Below are positions 3,743-17,391 of a DNA stretch of 19,056 nucleotides, piece after piece. Within the stretch, counting starts at the first letter, position 1. Every line of letters begins with the position of its first letter. This DNA comes from a virus (lineage: Duplodnaviria; Heunggongvirae; Uroviricota; Caudoviricetes). A model generated the notes under the pieces. It was not told the origin of the DNA. It did no database searches and worked only from the letters and a program-made list of their open reading frames with translations. The position numbers were made by a program, and so were the translations under genes. The stretch is taken from the IMG/VR virus record IMGVR_UViG_2695420589_000003; one strand, 5' to 3'.

Positions 3743-4010
3743 CTGTCGTGATATCGTTGCGTAGCTGTTCACGTCGGATTTCCCCTTCCTGTTGTCGGTT
3801 CTGGCGCGCTGTCATGACGTCACGCAGTACACCGGATGCGGTGCTGATGATGGTGCCGGCCTCTTTCAGGGTCCGGCTGTAATCGTCCAGTTGCGCCTGT
3901 GTATAACGGTTGTGTCCGTCTTCCTGCCCCAGTCTGAATGTCTGCCAGAGTGTTATGGTCAGCAGCGTGAGGACGGTCAGTGCCATCATCAGGATGTAAC
4001 GCACTTTCAT
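3537..4010 (-). CDS. lysB: Inner-membrane spanin (i-spanin, LysB/Rz-like)
   Basis: 157-aa ORF with one N-terminal TM segment (ILMMALTVLTLLTITLW) and a charged periplasmic part; ATG 4010 overlaps the endolysin stop as ATGA. Confidence 0.7.
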   Translation of the reverse strand: MKVRYILMMALTVLTLLTITLWQTFRLGQEDGHNRYTQAQLDDYSRTLKEAGTIISTASGVLRDVMTARQNRQQEGEIRREQLRNDITTDACARAVPDARFTERLHQHAERVRAAAVVPFHPGRADRPRTSPAVSGDAIMGKHRDMERQPHGRTGNL

Positions 4011-4544
4011 GACTGGCCTCCGGTGTCACGTAAGCACCATGCACGAAAATCAGTACGACGGTTAACCAGTCCCTGTGAGCGTTCGCCGCCGCTGTTCACG
4101 AAGTCAGTCAGTCTGTTGCACATGTCAGGCCAGTTGTGCGCCTGTGCATGTTTCCAGATAGTGGTGCGGTGGTAGTTACGGTTCTTATCCCTGAACCACA
4201 TAAGATTTCTGCATCCAAGATTAAAGGCGGCATCTGTCATTGCCTCAAACGCGGACTGTGGCATGGCGTTGCCGCTGAAGTTCTGATTTATGCAGTTTTC
4301 TGCATGTTGCATATCATTAACCCAGCGCCCGGCGACTTCCGTTTCGGTGTACAGACGATTTTCCACATGCCCGGTCGAGCCGCACCCCACGGTCATTACC
4401 CCGGCAATATCCCGGTAAGGCGTTGCGCGACAGTCCTCCCATGTGGCAATGCGGATTTGCGCTTCCGGGCTGGTCCGGAGTTTGTGAGGGGCAATGGAGA
4501 ACCCCAGCGCCACAATGGCGGCTACGGCGTAACGTTTAACGGGC
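4007..4544 (-). CDS. K: SAR-type endolysin (GH24 phage lysozyme, P1 Lyz / phage 21 R-like); start hidden in mask 4545-4562
   Basis: Visible sequence has a weakly hydrophobic Ala/Gly-rich N-terminal segment (YAVAAIVALGFSIA), an E-x8-D-x5-T catalytic arrangement (WEDCRATPYRDIAGVMT) and blocks ENCINQNFSGNAMPQSAFEAMTDAAFNLGC and FVNSGGERSQGLVNRR that match recalled P1 Lyz. Confidence 0.85.
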
Positions 4545-4562
4545 NNNNNNNNNNNNNNNNNN

Positions 4563-4855
4563 GCTTTATCATGTGTATCGTTATCCCGCAGAATGTTCAG
4601 AGCCTGACGCTCACTGTCGTGAAGTGGCCGTGCGTCTGACTGCGCCAGGATACTGGCGATGAGTTCATTGCGACGCTGCATGGCGGTTTCCATCAGGCGG
4701 CGATGTCGCCAGGCATGTAATGCAGACAGAGAACCGAGTAACAACCCGGCAAGGGCGATTTTTTCACTGATGGTCATCACGCCTATTGTGGTGGCTGTGA
4801 CTGATGCCCAGAAGGTGATCCAGTCACTCACCCGCTGAAAAAAACCTGTTACCAT
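4563..4855 (-). CDS. Y: Holin with two predicted TM segments; stop hidden in mask
   Basis: ATG at 4855 sits 2 nt after the X stop; two hydrophobic segments (WITFWASVTATTIGVMTI; IALAGLLLGSLSALHAW) then a charged tail; directly precedes the endolysin. Confidence 0.65.
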
Positions 4856-5046
4856 AGCTGTATCATCTCTCGTTGTTTTTTCTTCTCCGGCTCCGGCATT
4901 TCCACCTCCTGTCCGGCTTCCAGAAATACCTGTCGGCAGAGTCCGGGGTTGGCATCCAGCACCTTTTCGGTGACGCCCTGCGTCGTGCCGTAGTACCGGA
5001 AACAGAGCGAATCCACGGTGTCGCCTTCCAGTGTCTTCACTTTCAT
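4849..5046 (-). CDS. X: Tail protein gpX
   Basis: 65-aa ORF from internal ATG 5046 (MKVKTLEGDTVDSLCFRYYG...LDANPGL), resembling recalled P2 gpX (67 aa); ATG overlaps the L stop as TGATG. Confidence 0.8.
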   Translation of the reverse strand: MKVKTLEGDTVDSLCFRYYGTTQGVTEKVLDANPGLCRQVFLEAGQEVEMPEPEKKKQREMIQLW

Positions 5047-5312
5047 CAGCACAACTCCGCAAAGATTCGCGGGCGGCACAGAATGTCAGAGATGGCCCAG
5101 CTCACATCGCGCCACAAATCCGATGTCTGTATATCCAGTGCGTCCGCCCGGCGGTCGCCCTTGTCCGTTGTGTCCGCATCGCGGTAACGCTCCAGAATCA
5201 GGGCGCGTGTGGCGGTATAAACAGCATTGCGCCAGTGCCAGAGATTGACGCTTTCTCCGTTAATTACAGGTGCCGGAACATCGGCCAGCGTCTGATGGCC
5301 AGCCGCCTGCTG
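5046..5312 (-). CDS. L: Head completion protein gpL, C-terminal part; 5' part masked
   Basis: Open minus-strand frame ending at stop 5046-5048, located between M and X as in P2. No motif verified. Confidence 0.55.
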   Translation of the reverse strand, partial: QQAAGHQTLADVPAPVINGESVNLWHWRNAVYTATRALILERYRDADTTDKGDRRADALDIQTSDLWRDVSWAISDILCRPRIFAELC

Positions 5313-5811
5313 NNNNNNNNNNNNNNNNNNNNNNNNNNNNNNNNNNNNNNNNNNNNNNNNNNNNNNNNNNNNNNNNNNNNNNNNNNNNNNNNNNNNNNNN
5401 NNNNNNNNNNNNNNNNNNNNNNNNNNNNNNNNNNNNNNNNNNNNNNNNNNNNNNNNNNNNNNNNNNNNNNNNNNNNNNNNNNNNNNNNNNNNNNNNNNNN
5501 NNNNNNNNNNNNNNNNNNNNNNNNNNNNNNNNNNNNNNNNNNNNNNNNNNNNNNNNNNNNNNNNNNNNNNNNNNNNNNNNNNNNNNNNNNNNNNNNNNNN
5601 NNNNNNNNNNNNNNNNNNNNNNNNNNNNNNNNNNNNNNNNNNNNNNNNNNNNNNNNNNNNNNNNNNNNNNNNNNNNNNNNNNNNNNNNNNNNNNNNNNNN
5701 NNNNNNNNNNNNNNNNNNNNNNNNNNNNNNNNNNNNNNNNNNNNNNNNNNNNNNNNNNNNNNNNNNNNNNNNNNNNNGCGTCTTCTGGTGCGGCTGCGGA
5801 ATCGGCTTTTT

Positions 5812-8858: not shown

Positions 8859-10399
8859 CAGGTGGTGACTTTAAGGAAATAGACCTGCTGACCCGGCAGC
8901 TTAAAAAACTGCATGATGGCCAGCCGGATGCGACGGCCACAGGAAAGAAAGGCCGGGCGAAAAAACTCAAAAATCATTTCACGCCGGAACAGATTGCCGC
9001 ACTGCGGGAAAAAATCATCAGCAGGCTGGAGTGGCATCAGCGGGGCTGGTTTGACTCCCTGACGCTTTGCAGGGAAGCCGGGATACGTAACAGGATGATC
9101 CTGAAATCCCGACAGATTGGGGCGACCTGGTATTTTGCACAGGAAGCACTGCTGATGGCGCTGCGTGACGATGTGGCACAACCTTACCAGCGTAACCAGA
9201 TTTTTTTGTCTGCGTCGCGTCGTCAGGCGTTCCAGTTTAAAAGCATTATTCAGAAGGCCGCGGCTGAAGTCGATGTGGAGCTGAAAGGGGGCGATAAAAT
9301 CATCCTCTCCAACGGCGCAGAGATGCATTTTCTCGGCACTTCTGCTGCGACGGCGCAATCTTACACGGGCAATTTTTATTTTGATGAATTTTTCTGGGTC
9401 AGTCGCTTTGCTGAACTGCGCAAGGTGGCTGGCGCTATGGCAACCCTCAGCGGACTGCGGCGCACCTGCTTCTCCACGCCATCCACCGAAACGCACGAGG
9501 CATACGCCTACTGGAACGGCGACCGCTGGAACGAGAAAAAGGCCGCGCATAAACGCCAGCGTTTTTCTGTGGACTGGAAAACGCTGCATAACGGGCTTAT
9601 CTGCCCTGACCGGACGTGGCGGCAAATTGTCACGCTGGAAGATGTGGTTAATCACGGCTGGAAACACACCGATATTGATGAAATTCGTGATGAAAACACC
9701 GAAGACGAGTTCCGCAATCTCTATATGTGTGAGTTTGTCCGCGAAGGGGAATCGGCATTTAACCTGAATATCCTGATTGGCTGCGGTGTTGACGGATACG
9801 ACGACTGGAAAGACTGGAAACCCTTTGCCCCCCGCCCGATGGGGAATCGTCCGGTATGGATTGGGTATGACGCAAACGGCAGCAGTGGTAACGGCGACAG
9901 CGGCGCTGTGTCCGTGGTGGTTCCTCCGGCTGTTCCTGGTGGTCGTTTCAGAACGGTGGAGACGCGACGCGTTCAGGGGCTGGAATTTGAAGAGCAGGCC
10001 AGAGTTATTGAAGAGTTCACGTATCGCTACAACGTGGAACACATCGGCATTGATGCGACGGGCGGGCACGGGGATGCCGTCTATCAGATAGTGAAACGGT
10101 TTTTTCCCGCCGCCATCCCTTACACCTTCACGCTGTCATCAAAACGGTCGCTGGTACTGAAAATGCTGCAAATAATGCGTGCCGGGCGGTGGGAATACGA
10201 TCGCGCCGAACGCGAGCTGGTTGCGGCCTTTAACGCCGTGCGTAAGGTGAAAACACCGGGCGGTTTTATCACTTACGAAACGGACCGCGCGAGGGGGATC
10301 AGCCACGGCGACCTTGCGTGGGCAACCATGCTTGCTGTCATTAACGAACCGATTGGCGGCGAAGGAGAAAACGAGCGTTTCACGGTTATGGAGTTCTGA
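8859..10399 (+). CDS. P: Terminase large (ATPase) subunit gpP; N-terminal part masked (8561-8858)
   Basis: Long plus-strand frame ending at TGA 10397-10399 that overlaps the Q start (TGATG); Walker-B-like FYFDEFFW present; position divergent from O and upstream of Q matches P2. Confidence 0.85.
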
Positions 10400-11445
10400 T
10401 GAGCAGAAAAAATAAAAAAGTGCGCATGAGTTCACGCATTGATCTCGCTGATGCGCTCAGGAAAGAATCGTCGCTCAGTGCATTCACATTTGATGGTCCT
10501 TACCGCCTGACCGGGCATGACCTGCTGGACAATATGTACTGTGCTGATAACGGGCGGTGGTATGAAACCCCGGTGGACTGGTACGGTCTGGCAAGAGCTG
10601 CCCGGCAAACGTCCTGGCATCAGTCTGCGCTTTACTTTAAGCGCAATGTATTGCTCGGCTGCTATATTCCGCACCCGCTGCTTTCCCGGCAGGATTTCTC
10701 GGCGCTGGCGCTGGACTGGTTTGTGTTCGGTAACGCATTCCTTGAGCTTCGGAGCAATATGCTCGGCGAACCGCTTAAATTACGGCACGCCCTGGCGAAA
10801 TACATGCGACGCGGAAGCGATCTTGAATCATGGTGGTATGTGCAGGATGGCAAGGATGCGTTTCAGTTTCGTCCTGGCAAAGTGTGCCACCTGATGAATC
10901 CGGATATTAACCAGGAAATCTACGGCATGCCGGAATATCTTGGCGCATTACTCTCGGCCAGCCTTTCTCATTCGGCGGACATGTTCAGAAAACTGTACTA
11001 CGACAACGGATCCCACGCCGGGTGCATCATCTACATCGGTGCAGCGCAGGTAAACCGCGAAAGCATGGACTCCCTGAAAGAAACGCTACAGGGGGCACGT
11101 GGTGGTGGTGCGTTTAAAAACGTGCTCATTCATGCGCCCAACGGGGGCAAAGAGGGGGTGCAAATTTTGCCGTTCCAGCAGATCACCGCAAAGGATGAGT
11201 TCATGAATGTTAAGGCGGCATCCCGTGATGATGTGCTGGCTGCGCACCGCGTTCCGCCGCAACTGATGGGGGCGATGCCGGGCGAAAAAAGTGCGTTTGG
11301 TGATGTGGAGAAGGCCGCGCGGGTTTACGCAATTAACGAGCTGATGCCCGTCATGGAGGCCATGAAGCACATCAATGACTGGCTTGGCGAAGAGGTGATC
11401 CGCTTTAACCCTTACGCACTGTTAGACACCCAGCCCACATCCTGA
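10399..11445 (+). CDS. Q: Portal protein gpQ
   Basis: 348-aa ORF (P2 gpQ about 344 aa) starting MSRKNKKVRMSSR; GGAG RBS; last late gene before the presumed cos region, as in P2. Confidence 0.9.
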   Translation: MSRKNKKVRMSSRIDLADALRKESSLSAFTFDGPYRLTGHDLLDNMYCADNGRWYETPVDWYGLARAARQTSWHQSALYFKRNVLLGCYIPHPLLSRQDFSALALDWFVFGNAFLELRSNMLGEPLKLRHALAKYMRRGSDLESWWYVQDGKDAFQFRPGKVCHLMNPDINQEIYGMPEYLGALLSASLSHSADMFRKLYYDNGSHAGCIIYIGAAQVNRESMDSLKETLQGARGGGAFKNVLIHAPNGGKEGVQILPFQQITAKDEFMNVKAASRDDVLAAHRVPPQLMGAMPGEKSAFGDVEKAARVYAINELMPVMEAMKHINDWLGEEVIRFNPYALLDTQPTS

Positions 11446-11471
11446 CGCGCTTCGCTTGTCTGCTGCTTCGC

Positions 11472-11496
11472 CGGGGCATAAAAAATTTATGCCCCG
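11472..11496 (+). terminator. Perfect 11-bp stem / 3-nt loop hairpin (CGGGGCATAAA-AAA-TTTATGCCCCG) 27 nt after the Q stop
   Basis: Read directly; no U-tract follows on either strand, so not a canonical intrinsic terminator. Confidence 0.35.
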
Positions 11497-11782
11497 ACTC
11501 TCCAGCTCCTGTATCAGTCAGATAATTTCACGACGCTTTCCTGCTGATTGCCATCATCGACAGTCAGACTCTTACGCAATCCCACCTCGTTGACTGCATA
11601 TTCTCGCCGTCTCAGTGCGATTTTGACGGCCTTACCTTTCACCCCATCAAATCAAAAGCCCTCACGTCTTTTTCACGCTCAGCGTGAGAAATACAGCCAT
11701 TCTGTTGTATCTCTGCGACATCGTTCAGGGAATGCTATTTACCCCCTGAAACGCGGGCTGTTCCCCCGTCACCTGCGCGCAG

Positions 11783-11826
11783 AAAAAACGCGTTTTTTTG
11801 TGCATGCACGGATCCTTGACGGATCC
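11783..11826. repeat. Cluster of palindromes: AAAAAACGCGTTTTTT (11783-11798), GTGCATGCAC (11800-11809), GGATCC-N5-GGATCC (11810-11826)
   Basis: Read directly from the sequence. Confidence 0.6.
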
Positions 11827-11870
11827 AGCCGCCACGCGGGCCGGAAGGGCAAAAAGTCGTTCAAAAAAAT

Positions 11871-11896
11871 TGTGCAAATTTGTGCACTATTGTGCA
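11871..11896. repeat. Three TGTGCA hexamers at exactly 10-bp spacing (11871, 11881, 11891); a fourth copy at 11799
   Basis: Read directly; helical phasing suggests a protein-binding array. Confidence 0.6.
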
Positions 11897-11936
11897 TTTA
11901 TAAAATCAACTAAAAAACACCTAGTGTGACTTACCT

Positions 11937-12122
11937 CTACCACTCGATCGGCACGTAGTCATTAAGTTCCGGAGACCAATTGCACTTTTCACATCTGTGT
12001 TTTCCATTCTGGCAGATACATAAACGATAACGGCCACAATGCGGGCACCCATTTTCACCATTATCATAATCACCGAGCGACCATTCCTGCATAAGCAGCT
12101 CTTCTTCATCATCATTTAGCAT
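11937..12122 (-). CDS. Small Cys-rich (zinc-ribbon-like) protein with an acidic N-terminus; island gene 5
   Basis: 61-aa ORF with ATG 12122, AGGGGGA RBS and a Cys cluster (C-x2-C-x5-C-x-C-x6-C-x2-C); last gene of the minus-strand island. Confidence 0.55.
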   Translation of the reverse strand: MLNDDEEELLMQEWSLGDYDNGENGCPHCGRYRLCICQNGKHRCEKCNWSPELNDYVPIEW

Positions 12123-12136
12123 TAATCCCCCTTGAG

Positions 12137-12376
12137 CTATTTACTCTTCTCGGCCCTCAAAATCATACGAGAACCATCATCCAGCTCCCAATTAATTTCA
12201 CCGCCTTCTGCCATGACTAGATGCCAAACGAGTTGAGCGGCCTCGTTGGTTACATCGCGACCGCGATCATTTCCTACGCGGCGTTTTGTTCCGTCTCCTA
12301 AGTCACGCATTTTTGCCAATACGATGGTTTTTGATAGCGGTGAAAAACCAAGCTGTAGTCGTGCTGAATTACTCAC
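12137..12376 (-). CDS. Hypothetical protein (79 aa from GTG, or 57 aa from the internal ATG); island gene 4
   Basis: ORF whose GTG start overlaps the stop of the upstream 174-aa ORF (GTGA); no recognisable motif. Confidence 0.4.
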   Translation of the reverse strand: MSNSARLQLGFSPLSKTIVLAKMRDLGDGTKRRVGNDRGRDVTNEAAQLVWHLVMAEGGEINWELDDGSRMILRAEKSK

Positions 12377-12897
12377 TGGCTGCCCCCTTTGTACTGTGTT
12401 AACTCTTCCTGCTCCTGCATCATGCGATTGACCTGAACGCGTGTGCGTCGAACGGCAAAATTAAATTGAAACATGAGCCGGAACATTTCTGATGCTTCCG
12501 TGTGAGCATCACGGATAGGTGACAGGCGGTACAGTTCTGCCTCCGTAGCTTGTTGAATCAATGACAGATCAAATTGAAGTGCGGGTCTGGTACATTTTGC
12601 ACATCTGGCAGCAAGCTCCGGTATTAGTCTCTTAACGAAGGTGTTTTGCACCGCTTTGTTGATTTGTGTCTGCATCCAAATCGCAAATTTCAGCGAACGC
12701 ATAAGTTTGATAGCCTCGGGCAGCGGCAGATAGATCATGCTGGTAGATTTGGGTGGTTGGTGAACCATCTTCACGGATACGCGATTTCGCAGCGTTCGGA
12801 AAATCGTGTTCCCAACAACAGCTTCTACGGATACAGGACAGGGAGCCAGACCAGCCCGCAGTGCTTCTTTCATTAGCATGTATTCGTATTTTTTCAT
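12373..12897 (-). CDS. Hypothetical basic protein (174 aa); island gene 3
   Basis: ATG 12897 with GAGGA RBS 6 nt upstream; no recognisable domain. Confidence 0.55.
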   Translation of the reverse strand: MKKYEYMLMKEALRAGLAPCPVSVEAVVGNTIFRTLRNRVSVKMVHQPPKSTSMIYLPLPEAIKLMRSLKFAIWMQTQINKAVQNTFVKRLIPELAARCAKCTRPALQFDLSLIQQATEAELYRLSPIRDAHTEASEMFRLMFQFNFAVRRTRVQVNRMMQEQEELTQYKGGSQ

Positions 12898-12957
12898 CGT
12901 GTTTTCCTCGTGCGGGGCGACAGTGCACCCCGATAAAATTAAAAGCCGTCAAATTCG

Positions 12958-13121
12958 TCATTCAGGAAATAATGCCCGGATATTCCCTGCTATCTGACTG
13001 GTTATCTGTGCGGTTGGTACTGGCTGTGGCACGGGGCGTTCTGTCCTGGTTTGTGTCACCGATAACGCCTCATCGTCAGCCCATGCAGCCAGTCGGTAAG
13101 CCTCTGCTGGATTCATTTTCA
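12958..13121 (-). CDS. C-terminal 53 codons of an ORF starting in mask 13122-13387; candidate ParR-like adaptor by position only
   Basis: Open minus-strand frame ending at stop 12958, immediately downstream of the ParM-like gene, which is where parR sits in parMRC loci. No motif verified. Confidence 0.3.
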
Positions 13122-13387
13122 NNNNNNNNNNNNNNNNNNNNNNNNNNNNNNNNNNNNNNNNNNNNNNNNNNNNNNNNNNNNNNNNNNNNNNNNNNNNNNN
13201 NNNNNNNNNNNNNNNNNNNNNNNNNNNNNNNNNNNNNNNNNNNNNNNNNNNNNNNNNNNNNNNNNNNNNNNNNNNNNNNNNNNNNNNNNNNNNNNNNNNN
13301 NNNNNNNNNNNNNNNNNNNNNNNNNNNNNNNNNNNNNNNNNNNNNNNNNNNNNNNNNNNNNNNNNNNNNNNNNNNNNNNNNNNNNNN

Positions 13388-14299
13388 CACCCCGTCCGCG
13401 ATGAAAGTCGCATTAACTCCGCAGGCTTCGCGGATAGCGGGTGCCACAATCTCCGCCCCTCCACCGACAACCATCACCCGCCCGTAACCCGAAAAACCCG
13501 CCAGCGCGCGGATCACGCGTTGTTTCAGTGTTTCTTCCTTTTCACGAATAACCGCCATCAGGCTGGCGTAATGCGCGTCATTGTGGATGTGCTGGCGCAG
13601 CCAGGCTTCATCATGGCGATGTTCGATAATGGTATTGGCGATGTGGTGACTGGTGCGCATACCGTTAGTGGCCATCACCGACAGTACGGCATCGGCCATC
13701 AGAGAAACGCCTACGTGTGGATCGCAAAACACCTGGCTGATACCTGCCAGTTGCCCCTGAACCTTTGCCACATCCAGCGTGGTTCCGCCCAAATCCACAA
13801 TCAGCAGGGATTCAAACGGACTCATGTCAGCCAGTGCCTTAAAGCCAGCCGGAATGGATTCAGGCATAACCCGCACGTTACGGATAGTGAATGCTTCGCC
13901 GTTCTGGTACTCCACCGGGCGCATAACGTTCGCTTTTTTGCGGTTGATGTTGGCCATGTCCGGCTGTGCGTTTGTGTCGAAATACTCGCTCAGTGGCAGG
14001 GTGACAACCACATCCACCTCCTGTGGCGTGATGCCTGATTTGACCAGCGCGTGATGAATGGCAATGACATTTACATCGCTGTACTGGTATTGCGTGTCGG
14101 TTGTCTGGACAAAGCGATCGCTGACCGGATCAAAACCATAGCGCACGCCATCAAGCATGTAGTTCGCGGGCTGCATGCCACCGAACGGCGCAGACCATTC
14201 CGACTTGAAGCTGTTCGGGCTGATGGCGTTGCGGCGTTCGCCGTTCTCAGTCCATGCCAGCTTGATGTTGGTGGAGCCGTCGTCGATACAAATTTTCAT
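13388..14299 (-). CDS. ParM/StbA-like actin-fold ATPase (304 codons visible; C-terminus masked)
   Basis: N-terminus MKICIDDGSTNIKLAW closely matches recalled R1 ParM; all three ASKHA nucleotide-binding motifs present: DDGSTNIK (14261-14284), LIVDLGGTTLD (about 13778-13795), VMVVGGGAE (13451-13477); AAGGA RBS before ATG 14299. Confidence 0.85.
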
Positions 14300-14330
14300 G
14301 TCGCTTTTCCTTATGTTGATTAATTAATCG

Positions 14331-14442
14331 TTTACGGGATTCTGAAATCCCGTTTTTGCCTGTTTTGTGCGCGCTTCATATATCGCTGCGCGTTTTTTGC
14401 TCATTTACGGGATTCGTGAGTCCCGTTTCTGTCTGTTTTTTG
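14331..14442. repeat. Two copies, 73 bp apart, of a ~36-bp element TTTACGGGATTC-(loop)-TCCCGTTT-T-rich; each forms a hairpin followed by a T-run on the plus strand
   Basis: Copy 1 at 14331-14366 (hairpin 14335-14352) in the A/ParM spacer; copy 2 at 14404-14442 inside the last codons of A; loop differences are compensatory. Confidence 0.6.
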
Positions 14443-16785
14443 TTTCCACTGGTCAGGCCACCCCGCAGCAGGTCTGCTTTGCGGCGGGCGCGTTCAGTGG
14501 TTTCACTGATTCTCTGTGCGTGCTCTGCGTCGCGGATGGCGCGCAGCATGTCAGAAAGCACGGTAACGGGTGTTTTCATGGTGTTCTGGTCCTGCTGAAG
14601 TGTGGATGCCAGGCGTGCGGCGGCTTCAGGGTCTGATGCCCCCAGCTGTGTCAGATAGCTGGCGACCGGGTTATGGCGGATCTCCGTGCTGCTTACGCCA
14701 TGATTACGGCTCAGGCGCTGCCAGAGCTGCGTGATTCGGCTGTCCGGGCGGGTATCCGGTTTGCGTACAATTTCAAATCCCTGCGGTGCAATGATGCTGC
14801 CGTCAACGTACAGACTGCCGCCCCGTAACAGGTGCTGCATCTGTTGTTCACCGATATGCAGGCCGAGAGATTCAGCAGACTCCCGCCATTCTTTAGCGAG
14901 TAATTCGTGGTTATCAGGCAAAGGCCGCTGCTGTTTGCGGCTCTGTGTCCAGCTCTGCATTTCATCACTGCTGTTTTTTGCCTGTTTGTCACGAAGCGAA
15001 CGCATCAGCGCCCGGCGTTCGTGCCGTTTCAGTGAGCGCATCCATTCATCCACATCAACGCCGTCAGGGAGCTGCGGCCACGGTGCTGGCCGTTCTTCCG
15101 GCTGTTCTGTCCCGTTGTTGTCCGTTTCCTGTACACGGGGACAGTTATTGCCACGAGTCCAAGGGGCGGCAGGGCCGCCCTGAAGGTCAAAACCATTTTC
15201 GCGGGCGCTGTCTTCCGCTTCCGGTTTGCGTCTTACCAGCTTCCAGTTATCCGGATGCGTGCACACACGGGAGGATTCCCCGATGAGTGGTGACCAGATC
15301 CCGTAAATCTGTACGCTCTGTTCGCCGTAATCGTTCAGCTCATCGGCGAGGTCGTAGGCGGTGCGAATCAGGTAGTCTTTGCGTGGAACAAGTACGCCGC
15401 CCTGTTTCTCTATGTAGGTGGCAAAACATCCGGCATCAGCGGCGGCAAGAACCGCATCCATTGCGTCATCCTTCAGCCGTTGCGGGCCTTCCGGGTTGCG
15501 TGCCATCTGGCTGGCAAGGCGGCGCAGTTCACGCCATACCTGGCGGGAGGGGATGCCAAAGAACTGGAACTGGCGGACCCGGTGAAGGCGCGCCCAGCCG
15601 ATGGCGCGTTCCACGCTCTCGGCCATTGATTTTCCGGTTTCGTGGTCAACGCGTGGCTTGCCCGTTTTCGGGTCGATGCCATCCACGGCGCGGCTGTCCA
15701 GGTTTTTCCCGATGTAGGTGGCGATGTAGCTGGTTGGCGTGCCTTTTGAGCCGTCTACATACTCCGCCTTAAAGCGCGGAGTTATGTCATCGCCCAGCTC
15801 GTGACGATCTTCCTGAATGGCAATATCGCGGGTGTGGGACACAATGGTGTCGATTTCTTCCGGATGAGCAAAGACCATCATATGCCAGTGCACGGTGCCG
15901 TCATGGTGAGGCTCCGCCGTGCGGATGCCATACCAGCGCAGGCCGTCGCGGTTCAGTTTTTTGCGGACCGTCGCAAAAAACGTGTTAACCAGGTAATCGC
16001 TGGAGTCGCGCATTGTGGCCCCGTTCCATTTGGGATTCGGATGACCGTTCTCCGTTGTGGCGTGGTATTTTGACGGGCAGGTGACAGTCAGAAACACCGC
16101 TTTGTCGCCACGGGCTTCGGCCAGAAGTTCCAGCCCCTTCATGGTGGCCATCATTTCTGCCTTACGGTGAACCGGGTTACTTACTCCCGCGTAATACACC
16201 GTCTCGAGATCAATCGTGAACCCGTCTTCATTTTCCAGCATGAAACTTTTCAGGAAATCGCGTGTTTTCTCGCGCTGTGCGCGAAACTCGCTTAACGCGT
16301 CCTGGCTCAGATAGGGCGATGTTTTTCTGGAAACCAGACAGGCGGCGCGAAGTTGTTCTTCTCTCCACTCGCAACGTAACAGCCACAGTTTGCGTTTCCA
16401 CCATTCCGCACAGGTCAGGCGAAGGATTGCGCCCGGCAGCAGTTCTGTGTCCGGTTCGTGCCTCCGGTCTTTGTCTGTTGTCAGTGCGTCATAATGCGGA
16501 GGCATGGCGTGTAAGTGTAACGCCATGCGGGCCAGCATCTGATACGCCTTCAGCGTTACATCCATGGTCAGCTCGCCATCAGTCGCGCCAAAACCATCGC
16601 AGAGTTTTTCGAAGGTGCTGCTGAACATCGCCGCCGTCATGGTGGCCAGCGTCTGTATCTGGTGTTTGTTGAGTTGCGGCAGGTAAAGCAAATCGTCCAG
16701 GCGTTCACGTCCGGCAAGGGAGCGATAACCCGGTGTCAGCCAGTGTCCGTCAGTGCGATCCAGACGTTCGAATATTTTGCGCAGG
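14376..16785 (-). CDS. A: Rolling-circle replication initiator gpA (HUH endonuclease); 5' end in mask 16786-17312
   Basis: Contains EPHHDGTVHWHMMVF (HUH motif) and YIATYIGKNLD (paired catalytic Tyr), matching recalled P2 gpA; about 803 codons visible. Confidence 0.9.
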
Positions 16786-17391
16786 NNNNNNNNNNNNNNN
16801 NNNNNNNNNNNNNNNNNNNNNNNNNNNNNNNNNNNNNNNNNNNNNNNNNNNNNNNNNNNNNNNNNNNNNNNNNNNNNNNNNNNNNNNNNNNNNNNNNNNN
16901 NNNNNNNNNNNNNNNNNNNNNNNNNNNNNNNNNNNNNNNNNNNNNNNNNNNNNNNNNNNNNNNNNNNNNNNNNNNNNNNNNNNNNNNNNNNNNNNNNNNN
17001 NNNNNNNNNNNNNNNNNNNNNNNNNNNNNNNNNNNNNNNNNNNNNNNNNNNNNNNNNNNNNNNNNNNNNNNNNNNNNNNNNNNNNNNNNNNNNNNNNNNN
17101 NNNNNNNNNNNNNNNNNNNNNNNNNNNNNNNNNNNNNNNNNNNNNNNNNNNNNNNNNNNNNNNNNNNNNNNNNNNNNNNNNNNNNNNNNNNNNNNNNNNN
17201 NNNNNNNNNNNNNNNNNNNNNNNNNNNNNNNNNNNNNNNNNNNNNNNNNNNNNNNNNNNNNNNNNNNNNNNNNNNNNNNNNNNNNNNNNNNNNNNNNNNN
17301 NNNNNNNNNNNNCGGGGATCCCCGTTCCTTCACGCCCCACTGCGTGGCGCGGTTGTTGCCAGTCCCTGATGTACTCTGCCGTCATAGTGAT

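Follow-up and report, generated by a model that had tools for sequence, protein, structure and literature searches.

A ParM-ParR gene pair with parC-like repeats as lineage core of P88-like prophages, bordering a variable cargo slot

We examined a stretch of viral DNA of 19,056 nucleotides (IMG/VR record IMGVR_UViG_2695420589_000003, Caudoviricetes), hereafter called the window, in which a gene for a ParM-like actin ATPase and a second, half-masked gene lie directly behind the replication endonuclease gene (A) of a P2-like phage. The window is oriented as the reverse complement of the P2 map. In a megablast search, the closest sequences were Escherichia phage P88, Citrobacter phage phiSM and other Xuanwuvirus (Peduoviridae), with 95-99% identity over A, parM and the cos side, at a query coverage of just 50-55%; the window belongs to a P88-like phage (Xuanwuvirus, P2 family). 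Gene A ends with its stop at position 14376, and five minus-strand genes are packed between A and the side of the portal gene Q. The original prediction, made from the sequence alone, had described these five same-strand open reading frames (ORFs) between A and cos/Q, and all of them were present on the minus strand. The two genes nearest to A, together with a pair of repeats upstream of them, make up the putative partition module, the features of which are as follows.

14401-14442, minus strand: candidate parC block A, a 42-nt direct repeat (D1) with an inverted repeat
14328-14369, minus strand: candidate parC block B, the second 42-nt repeat
13388-14299, minus strand: parM, start at 14299, residues 1-304 visible; PF06406, PF21523 and R1 ParM match
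13122-13387: masked stretch of 266 N
12958-13121, minus strand: parR, C-terminal 53 codons and stop visible, read via loci L013 and L016

The mask conceals the last 15 codons and the stop of parM, codons 1-50 of parR and the 4 nt between the two genes. Two IMG/VR loci, L013 and L016, were 100% identical to the window over every unmasked segment compared, from the 3' end of A to Q, so that the masked stretch can be read from them. At its position, all relatives, including L013 and L016, carry 200 nt and not 266, and the length of the mask is probably not faithful to the real DNA. The excess of 66 nt is a multiple of three, and the relative reading frames are undisturbed.

The parM product matched the Pfam families PF06406 (E = 2.4e-82) and PF21523 (E = 1e-61), as well as the structure of R1 ParM (1mwk; E = 8.5e-93, residues 2-316). 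The proposal that this ORF encodes a ParM-like ATPase of the actin family was therefore correct. The nucleotide-binding motifs DDGSTNIK, DLGGTTLD and GGGAE, which align with the phosphate-binding and adenosine motifs of 1mwk, were invariant among relatives. Judged by its sequence, the protein is a genuine close homologue of R1 ParM. The gene was intact and always 319 codons long in all 87 related loci, with a ratio of nonsynonymous to synonymous polymorphism (pN/pS) of 0.055 across these loci, and is under strong purifying selection. One contig, L046 (IMGVR_UViG_3300029071_000010), gave a ParM tblastn match of 1380 nt (4001-5380), not 957 nt, despite an intact 319-codon parM. A scan of genome contigs with the single ParM sequence returned near-identical loci only, and the scan of viral contigs with a ParM alignment returned 80 loci that were all 99-100% identical, which makes them informative on cargo diversity and not on divergence.

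The gene that follows parM in L013 and L016 encodes a protein of 103 amino acids (aa), MTTPTRRISFYLKPAAVKNESEACAWLGSLTPEARKSGQRVAFLAGLALLKMNPAEAYRLAAWADDEALSVTQTRTERPVPQPVPTAQITSQIAGNIRALFPE; its C-terminal 53 residues are identical to the ones that the window shows. A near-identical relative of this protein matched PF10784 (Plasmid_stab_B; 1.6e-24, model positions 1-71 of 72), a family that includes the StbB/ParR of the R1-type plasmid examined, and phrog_2515, annotated as 'partition protein' (1.3e-58). From these family matches, the masked second gene of the original prediction is parR. The protein had no NCBIfam match, and no match among solved structures even at an E value of 10. Among the 87 loci, we found 49 distinct ParR translations, including one copy truncated by the contig; two loci had no call. 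The full-length proteins fall into at least two allele families but share one architecture: an N-terminal RRISFYLKP...AFLAGLAL segment kept in all of them (one allele has a single substitution), a hypervariable linker rich in Pro, Gln and Thr, and a conserved terminal motif, K-x-N-[IA]-x-x-[LF]-F-P. Accordingly, pN/pS was 0.21 in the N-terminus, 0.74 in the linker and 0.19 in the C-terminus.

The N-terminus of ParR was 32% identical to residues 5-60 of R1 ParR, and membership of this family would predict a ribbon-helix-helix fold. When divergent ParRs of P2-like phages were aligned with R1 ParR, the terminal motif fell against the R1 C-terminal sequence KKNAMKLIN; the extreme C-terminal tail of R1 ParR is the part that binds ParM. 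A middle segment, present in R1 and in other phage ParRs, is lost in the E. coli phage protein, which has 103 aa versus 117 aa in R1. The architecture is thus the pattern expected of a working adaptor, in which the C-terminal peptide would bind ParM.

Upstream of parM, we observed two 42-nt direct repeats that are 81% identical and lie 73 bp apart. Block A, which has ACGGGACTCACGAATCCCGT as its palindromic core, falls within the final codons of gene A; block B, with the core ACGGGATTTCAGAATCCCGT, lies in the 76-nt spacer between A and parM, 34 nt upstream of the parM ATG. Each block holds a 20-bp palindrome, ACGGGAyTy..rArTCCCGT, and this core pattern occurred twice in the window, once in each block, versus 0.01 occurrences expected. 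A count of AAACRGR half-sites, a pattern defined from these repeats after the fact, does not constitute independent evidence. Both blocks were conserved throughout the P88-like loci, and most of the changes fell in the loop of the palindrome. Similar arrangements were found elsewhere: a P2-like phage of Plesiomonas (ParM 63% identical) has two 26-nt repeats 72 bp apart at the same position, and plasmid parMR loci have two iteron blocks 72 bp apart in Pantoea and 73 bp apart in Cronobacter. In the R1-type plasmid, the two iteron blocks are 46 nt long and 94 bp apart, as compared to the 42 nt, 20-bp palindrome and 73-bp spacing of the phage. The phage therefore appears to have the two-block layout of a plasmid parC, with a sequence of its own. 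Binding by the ParR protein is the best reading of these candidate blocks, though not the only one. No co-variation was seen between ParR allele type and the sequence of the repeat blocks, and the putative DNA-contacting RRISFYLKP segment is almost invariant.

A consensus scan recognised neither a sense-strand terminator nor a sigma-70 promoter between A and parM or near the blocks. Since parMR lies on the same strand as A with no such signal recognised between them, it would be expressed with the early/replication operon, together with A. This would differ from R1 and R100, in which parC flanks the promoter of the operon; the same scan recognised no promoter between the two phage blocks.

To a large extent, this module is already known, as it is annotated in RefSeq, very common, and fixed in the lineage of P88-like prophages. 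P88-type RefSeq records list, in order, the replication endonuclease, a 'plasmid segregation protein ParM', a 103-aa 'partition / plasmid partitioning-stability protein', differing small genes, and the portal. Phages P88 (gp17, ParM, and gp18, 'partition protein') and phiSM carry the same genes in the same order with the same flanks, and their DNA is 97-99% identical to the window over A, the spacer, parM and parR. P88 differs in the cargo distal to parR, where it has two other small genes, one of them annotated as a carboxylate-amine ligase/ClpX zinc-finger protein, and phiSM differs only in the insert distal to parR. Rousset et al. 2022 (PMC9122126) reported that about one quarter of E. coli P2-like phages have, at this locus, a putative system for plasmid partitioning. 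An actin module in a P2-like phage, which the original prediction had called unexpected, is therefore nothing unusual. The only role given to the gene in the phiSM paper is that of a 'fitness' factor (PMC6456863), and a term search of the P88 paper returned no occurrence of 'ParM'.

The order gpA, parM-parR, portal was also observed in P2-like phages from four further genera (Plesiomonas, Hafnia, Serratia and Enterobacter), where ParM is 54-63% identical; in all four, the parM homologue sits between a Phage_GPA gene and the portal gene and is followed in each case by a Plasmid_stab_B gene. ParM homologues at 52% (Pantoea) and 50% (Cronobacter) are on plasmids with Rep3 and ParA. Among complete E. 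coli genomes, 1279 carried the parM allele at a length coverage of 80% or more and 1355 the adjacent segment of gene A, which suggests, from counts not paired per locus, that parM accompanies about 94% of this type of A gene in E. coli. Although located between gpA and gpQ/cos, parMR does not differ between near-identical phages as cargo would. It is a fixed, vertically inherited lineage core of P88-like phages.

The claim that a cargo-swapping hotspot occupies the whole segment between A and cos consequently holds in part. The comparison with P88, phiSM and related loci confirmed the conserved flanks and the variable distal cargo, and the three genes beyond parR do behave as a hotspot: in 57 loci with near-identical parM, the stretch between the parR stop and the cos-proximal sequence took 28 architectures, ranging from 538 to 2006 nt. 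parM and parR, by contrast, do not vary (parM was found in 87 of 87 loci) and turned out to be a conserved, known core of P88-like phages, which the distal genes are not. The true hotspot is a stretch of about 1 kb, at about 11899-12957, which ends just before a conserved terminator-like hairpin. Thus, the phage shares with the P2 tin/old hotspot the slot between gpA and gpQ/cos, but only this part of it acts as cargo. For annotation and for the mining of defence islands, parMR should count as lineage core, with the boundary of the hotspot placed after parR. The features of this part of the window are as follows.

11899-12957, minus strand: variable hotspot, parR stop to conserved cos-proximal sequence, from blastn homology breakpoints against 92 loci
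12373-12897, minus strand: 174-aa ORF
12137-12376, minus strand: 79-aa ORF, DUF7446 (PF24233)
11937-12122, minus strand: 61-aa Cys-rich ORF
11862-11887, minus strand: terminator-like hairpin (11872-11887) and U-run, GTGCACAAATTTGCAC AATTTTTTTG, from the consensus scan

In E. coli genomes, the slot after parR contained ClpX-type zinc-finger genes, ead/Ea22-like genes, YafO and Doc/Phd toxin-antitoxin pairs, among others. We also noted a KAP-family NTPase gene at this position in an Enterobacter phage (L094, 6411-7757) and HicA/HicB in a Serratia phage (L012, 7450-8084). By gene content, it would appear to be a slot for conflict genes in other genera too.

With regard to genomic location, the parM allele was present in 1303 of the 5426 complete E. 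coli genomes, at 1441 chromosomal places versus 2 on plasmids. The complete element carries a tyrosine integrase, and integrated copies break next to pdxB in many E. coli genomes. P88-like phages are integrating prophages, and a stable plasmid state is not supported as their normal condition. Only 7 of the 72,556 plasmids in PLSDB matched parM. Five of these are records of 228 kb to 1.4 Mb, and the other two are phage-sized 'plasmid' records, E. coli pZ1323PEC0009-2 (34,461 bp) and a Shigella boydii plasmid (26.8 kb). The first of these (NZ_CP148288.1, circular) comprises an entire P88-like phage, including integrase, Hok/Gef and a Com/methyltransferase pair. The record starts exactly where integrated copies break (query position 463), and it therefore looks like an excised phage circle that was assembled as a replicon. 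Among the large plasmids, Salmonella pS2122_1 (NZ_CP110658.1, 272 kb, IncHI2A) contains an integrated stretch of P88-like prophage. The stretch covers the head, terminase and early genes as well as A, with parMR and the 174-aa gene among them. This plasmid is typed as non-mobilizable, yet has an MPF_F mating-pair system, and could offer a route for prophage movement between hosts. A further match, a 226-kb contig labelled Vagococcus sp. WN89Y and hence as a Firmicute (NZ_JBQPOM010000071.1), carries this prophage region with a ParM 98% identical, and is probably an assembly contamination or a mislabelling.

Taken as a whole, it is about evenly balanced whether positions 12958-14442 form a complete type II (ParMRC-type) module that segregates extrachromosomal phage circles and so cuts loss of the element. 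According to this proposal, dimers of ParR would bind the two 42-nt blocks upstream of parM, the candidate parC, and the conserved C-terminal peptide of ParR would capture the ends of ParM-ATP filaments, whose growth would drive apart the sister circles of phage DNA. The module would be made with the replication protein A, and expression with the early operon would confine its action to the replicating, extrachromosomal phase of the genome, which follows infection or excision and ends with integration or lysis. Both daughter cells would then receive circles, and fewer elements would be lost, as proposed by analogy with the SXT/R391 elements. In these, the ParM-type system srpMRC was shown to reduce element loss, and R391 replicates by means of a rolling-circle relaxase (Carraro et al. 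2015, PMC4489591). srpMRC may be the closest functional analogy, being a ParM-type system in a normally integrated element with a rolling-circle initiator once excised; however, SrpM and SrpR are distantly related to R1 ParMR (PMC4489591), and their host is conjugative and not a phage. Compared with the R1/R100 ParMRC systems, the module shows a full-length ParM match, the same Pfam family for ParR, the order parC (here a candidate)-parM-parR and two blocks upstream, but it resides in an integrated phage and not in a plasmid.

Several observations weigh against this proposal or qualify the reading of the blocks. The phages of Serratia and Enterobacter have a layout of inverted blocks instead of direct repeats. 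R1 parC consists of ten 11-bp iterons, and the candidate parC, with its two palindrome-containing blocks, is unlike them; that ParR would bind such blocks is a prediction from their layout. Moreover, the palindromes at 14334-14353 and 14407-14426 also score as terminator-like on the plus strand, antisense to A and parM. Among 53 haplotypes, the stem of block B showed changes (A/G in the left arm, C/T in the right arm) in all combinations, all of which can pair through G:U on the sense RNA. Because of these antisense terminator-like hairpins and G:U-compatible changes, the blocks may have a role at the RNA level. At its E-value thresholds, Rfam recognised no RNA element in 11300-14700. The absence of a promoter rests on a crude consensus scan, and an autoregulated promoter between the blocks, as in R1, may allow expression in the lysogen. 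Repression of the P2 type would shut off A, and a repressed free circle that does not replicate would limit the benefit of partition. Finally, our literature search turned up no work on the function of ParMR in P2-like phages.

The main rival to the inheritance role is a role in the lytic cycle, in which ParMR would position or spread the replicating circles for efficient replication and packaging; P2-type phages package from monomeric circles. We consider this possible, with the chances clearly on the other side. It draws on the same molecular evidence from ParM and ParR, and both the location of the module directly behind the replication gene A, on the same strand, and the strong purifying selection would fit a role in every productive cycle. 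A precedent is AlpAC of the Corynebacterium glutamicum prophage CGP3, in which the actin-like AlpC acts with a DNA-binding adaptor and which was likened to ParMR-type systems (Donovan et al. 2015, PMC4446434). It shares with the present module an origin in an integrated prophage, an adaptor that binds upstream of its own operon, and early expression, and these early genes, for AlpC and AlpA, are needed for efficient replication of CGP3 (PMC4446434). The demonstrated role of AlpAC is thus efficient replication, not inheritance, and its likeness to ParMR-type systems is the description given in that paper. The proteins and the two-block layout found here are, on the other hand, those of plasmid partition, the known output of which is the bipolar separation of pairs, and megablast found a P2-like phage that shares the cos region but is without parM. 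Phages P2 and 186 are not known to carry ParMR. The data do not separate the lytic role from the inheritance role.

Three other explanations have much less in their favour. That the partition system serves a stable plasmid existence of these phages in place of integration, a possibility raised by Rousset et al. 2022 (PMC9122126) and favoured by the two phage-sized circular 'plasmid' records (34,461 bp and 26.8 kb), is very unlikely: the ratio of 1441 chromosomal to 2 plasmid places largely refutes it as the main lifestyle, the 34-kb record has an integrase and starts at the integration break, as an excised circle would, and five of the seven PLSDB matches are very large plasmids, with parM lying in an integrated prophage in the one inspected, pS2122_1. 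A conflict module, whether for anti-phage defence or abortive infection or as an incompatibility weapon against ParMRC plasmids such as IncFII, is a shade less probable again. The locus is a documented defence hotspot (PMC9122126), and the neighbouring cargo of relatives includes toxin-antitoxin pairs and a KAP NTPase; however, ParMR lacks the phage-to-phage variation of defence cargo, and none of the five proteins had a match in PADLOC-DB (E <= 0.01). The suggestion of defence or abortive infection in the original prediction also sits badly with a ParM that has a matching ParR and parC-like repeats. As for incompatibility, the DNA-binding part of ParR is 32% identical to that of R1 and the repeats differ (AAACGGGA-type versus AAACCCA-type), which makes cross-binding to R1-type sites unlikely. 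Least probable of all, and hardly to be credited, is a functionless relic of a plasmid par module that was captured once and has since hitch-hiked. Nothing positive speaks for it, apart from the fact that no phenotype has been reported, and it is contradicted by the parM pN/pS of 0.055, by the full-length gene in 87 of 87 loci, and by a synteny that persists across genera down to 54% ParM identity.

If partition and lytic organisation are considered jointly, we would propose, tentatively and with somewhat less than even confidence, that a plasmid-derived actin spindle handles the phage's own rolling-circle genome while it is extrachromosomal, either for the yield of lysogens and against curing, or for the organisation of replication and packaging. 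Were this true, ParMRC would be a component of the phage replication cycle rather than a plasmid trait. As it stands, a 'plasmid segregation' system is chromosomal in about one quarter of sequenced E. coli strains, in a prophage and under strong purifying selection, and knowledge of its role would shed light on the survival of integrating elements while they are outside the chromosome, or on the way in which small phages arrange DNA in the cell.

The three genes distal to parR are, judging from their matches, probably small accessory genes unrelated to partition, and the original prediction was right to describe them as small genes without recognised function. This set of cargo was found in three IMG/VR contigs, L013, L015 and L016, of which L015 is slightly different near A. 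The 174-aa protein is an orphan: it had no match in Pfam, NCBIfam, PHROG or PADLOC, occurred in 8 clusters among 5.8 billion proteins, and in an exhaustive HMMER search of 1.84 billion representatives gave 4 matches, corresponding to three close relatives and one marginal match. Its AlphaFold model was unreliable (pLDDT, the predicted local confidence score, of 49.5). A 60-nt leader (12898-12957), which contains the hairpin CGGGGTGCACTGTCGCCCCG, moves with the gene. Leader and gene recur after another inserted gene in L039, L072 and L075, which suggests that the hotspot is assembled cassette-wise.

The GTG start of the 79-aa ORF overlaps the TGA of the 174-aa ORF, as had been noted beforehand; the plus strand reads tcac at 12373-12376, that is, GTGA on the coding strand. 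The 79-aa protein matched PF24233 (DUF7446; 9.7e-17) and phrog_1578 (2.1e-32), and has 372 homologues across prophages of Enterobacteriaceae. At the DNA level, the gene (12146-12391) shared 80-92% identity with sequences in lambdoid phages, in a Yersinia phage and in numerous plasmids of about 48 and about 90 kb, where it usually lies beside ead/Ea22-like genes. As this gene alone matches unrelated elements, cassette exchange between unrelated temperate elements is indicated. The AlphaFold model (pLDDT 57.7) was, like that of the 174-aa protein, too poor for fold comparison. The 61-aa Cys-rich protein matched phrog_24897, of unknown function (2.6e-46), and, below threshold, PF12760 (Zn_ribbon_IS1595; E = 0.0053), and looks zinc-ribbon-like. 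Neither the 79-aa nor the 61-aa protein had an NCBIfam match.

The terminator-like hairpin beyond the cargo genes lies within the cos-proximal segment that was kept in all loci, whatever their cargo. Its fold is weak (z -0.5), but by position it is likely to be the common end of the A-parMR-cargo transcript. On its other side, the window continues with the following features.

11446-11936: non-coding region, taken as cos-proximal by position
10399-11445, plus strand: portal gene Q (ORF)
9095-10399, plus strand: large terminase gene (ORF)

At the opposite end of the module, the replication endonuclease gene occupies 14376-17333 in the window. The protein has about 940 aa in P88-like phages (the P88 coding sequence has 2823 nt) and 785-907 aa in other phages that carry parMR; P2 gpA presumably has about 761 aa.

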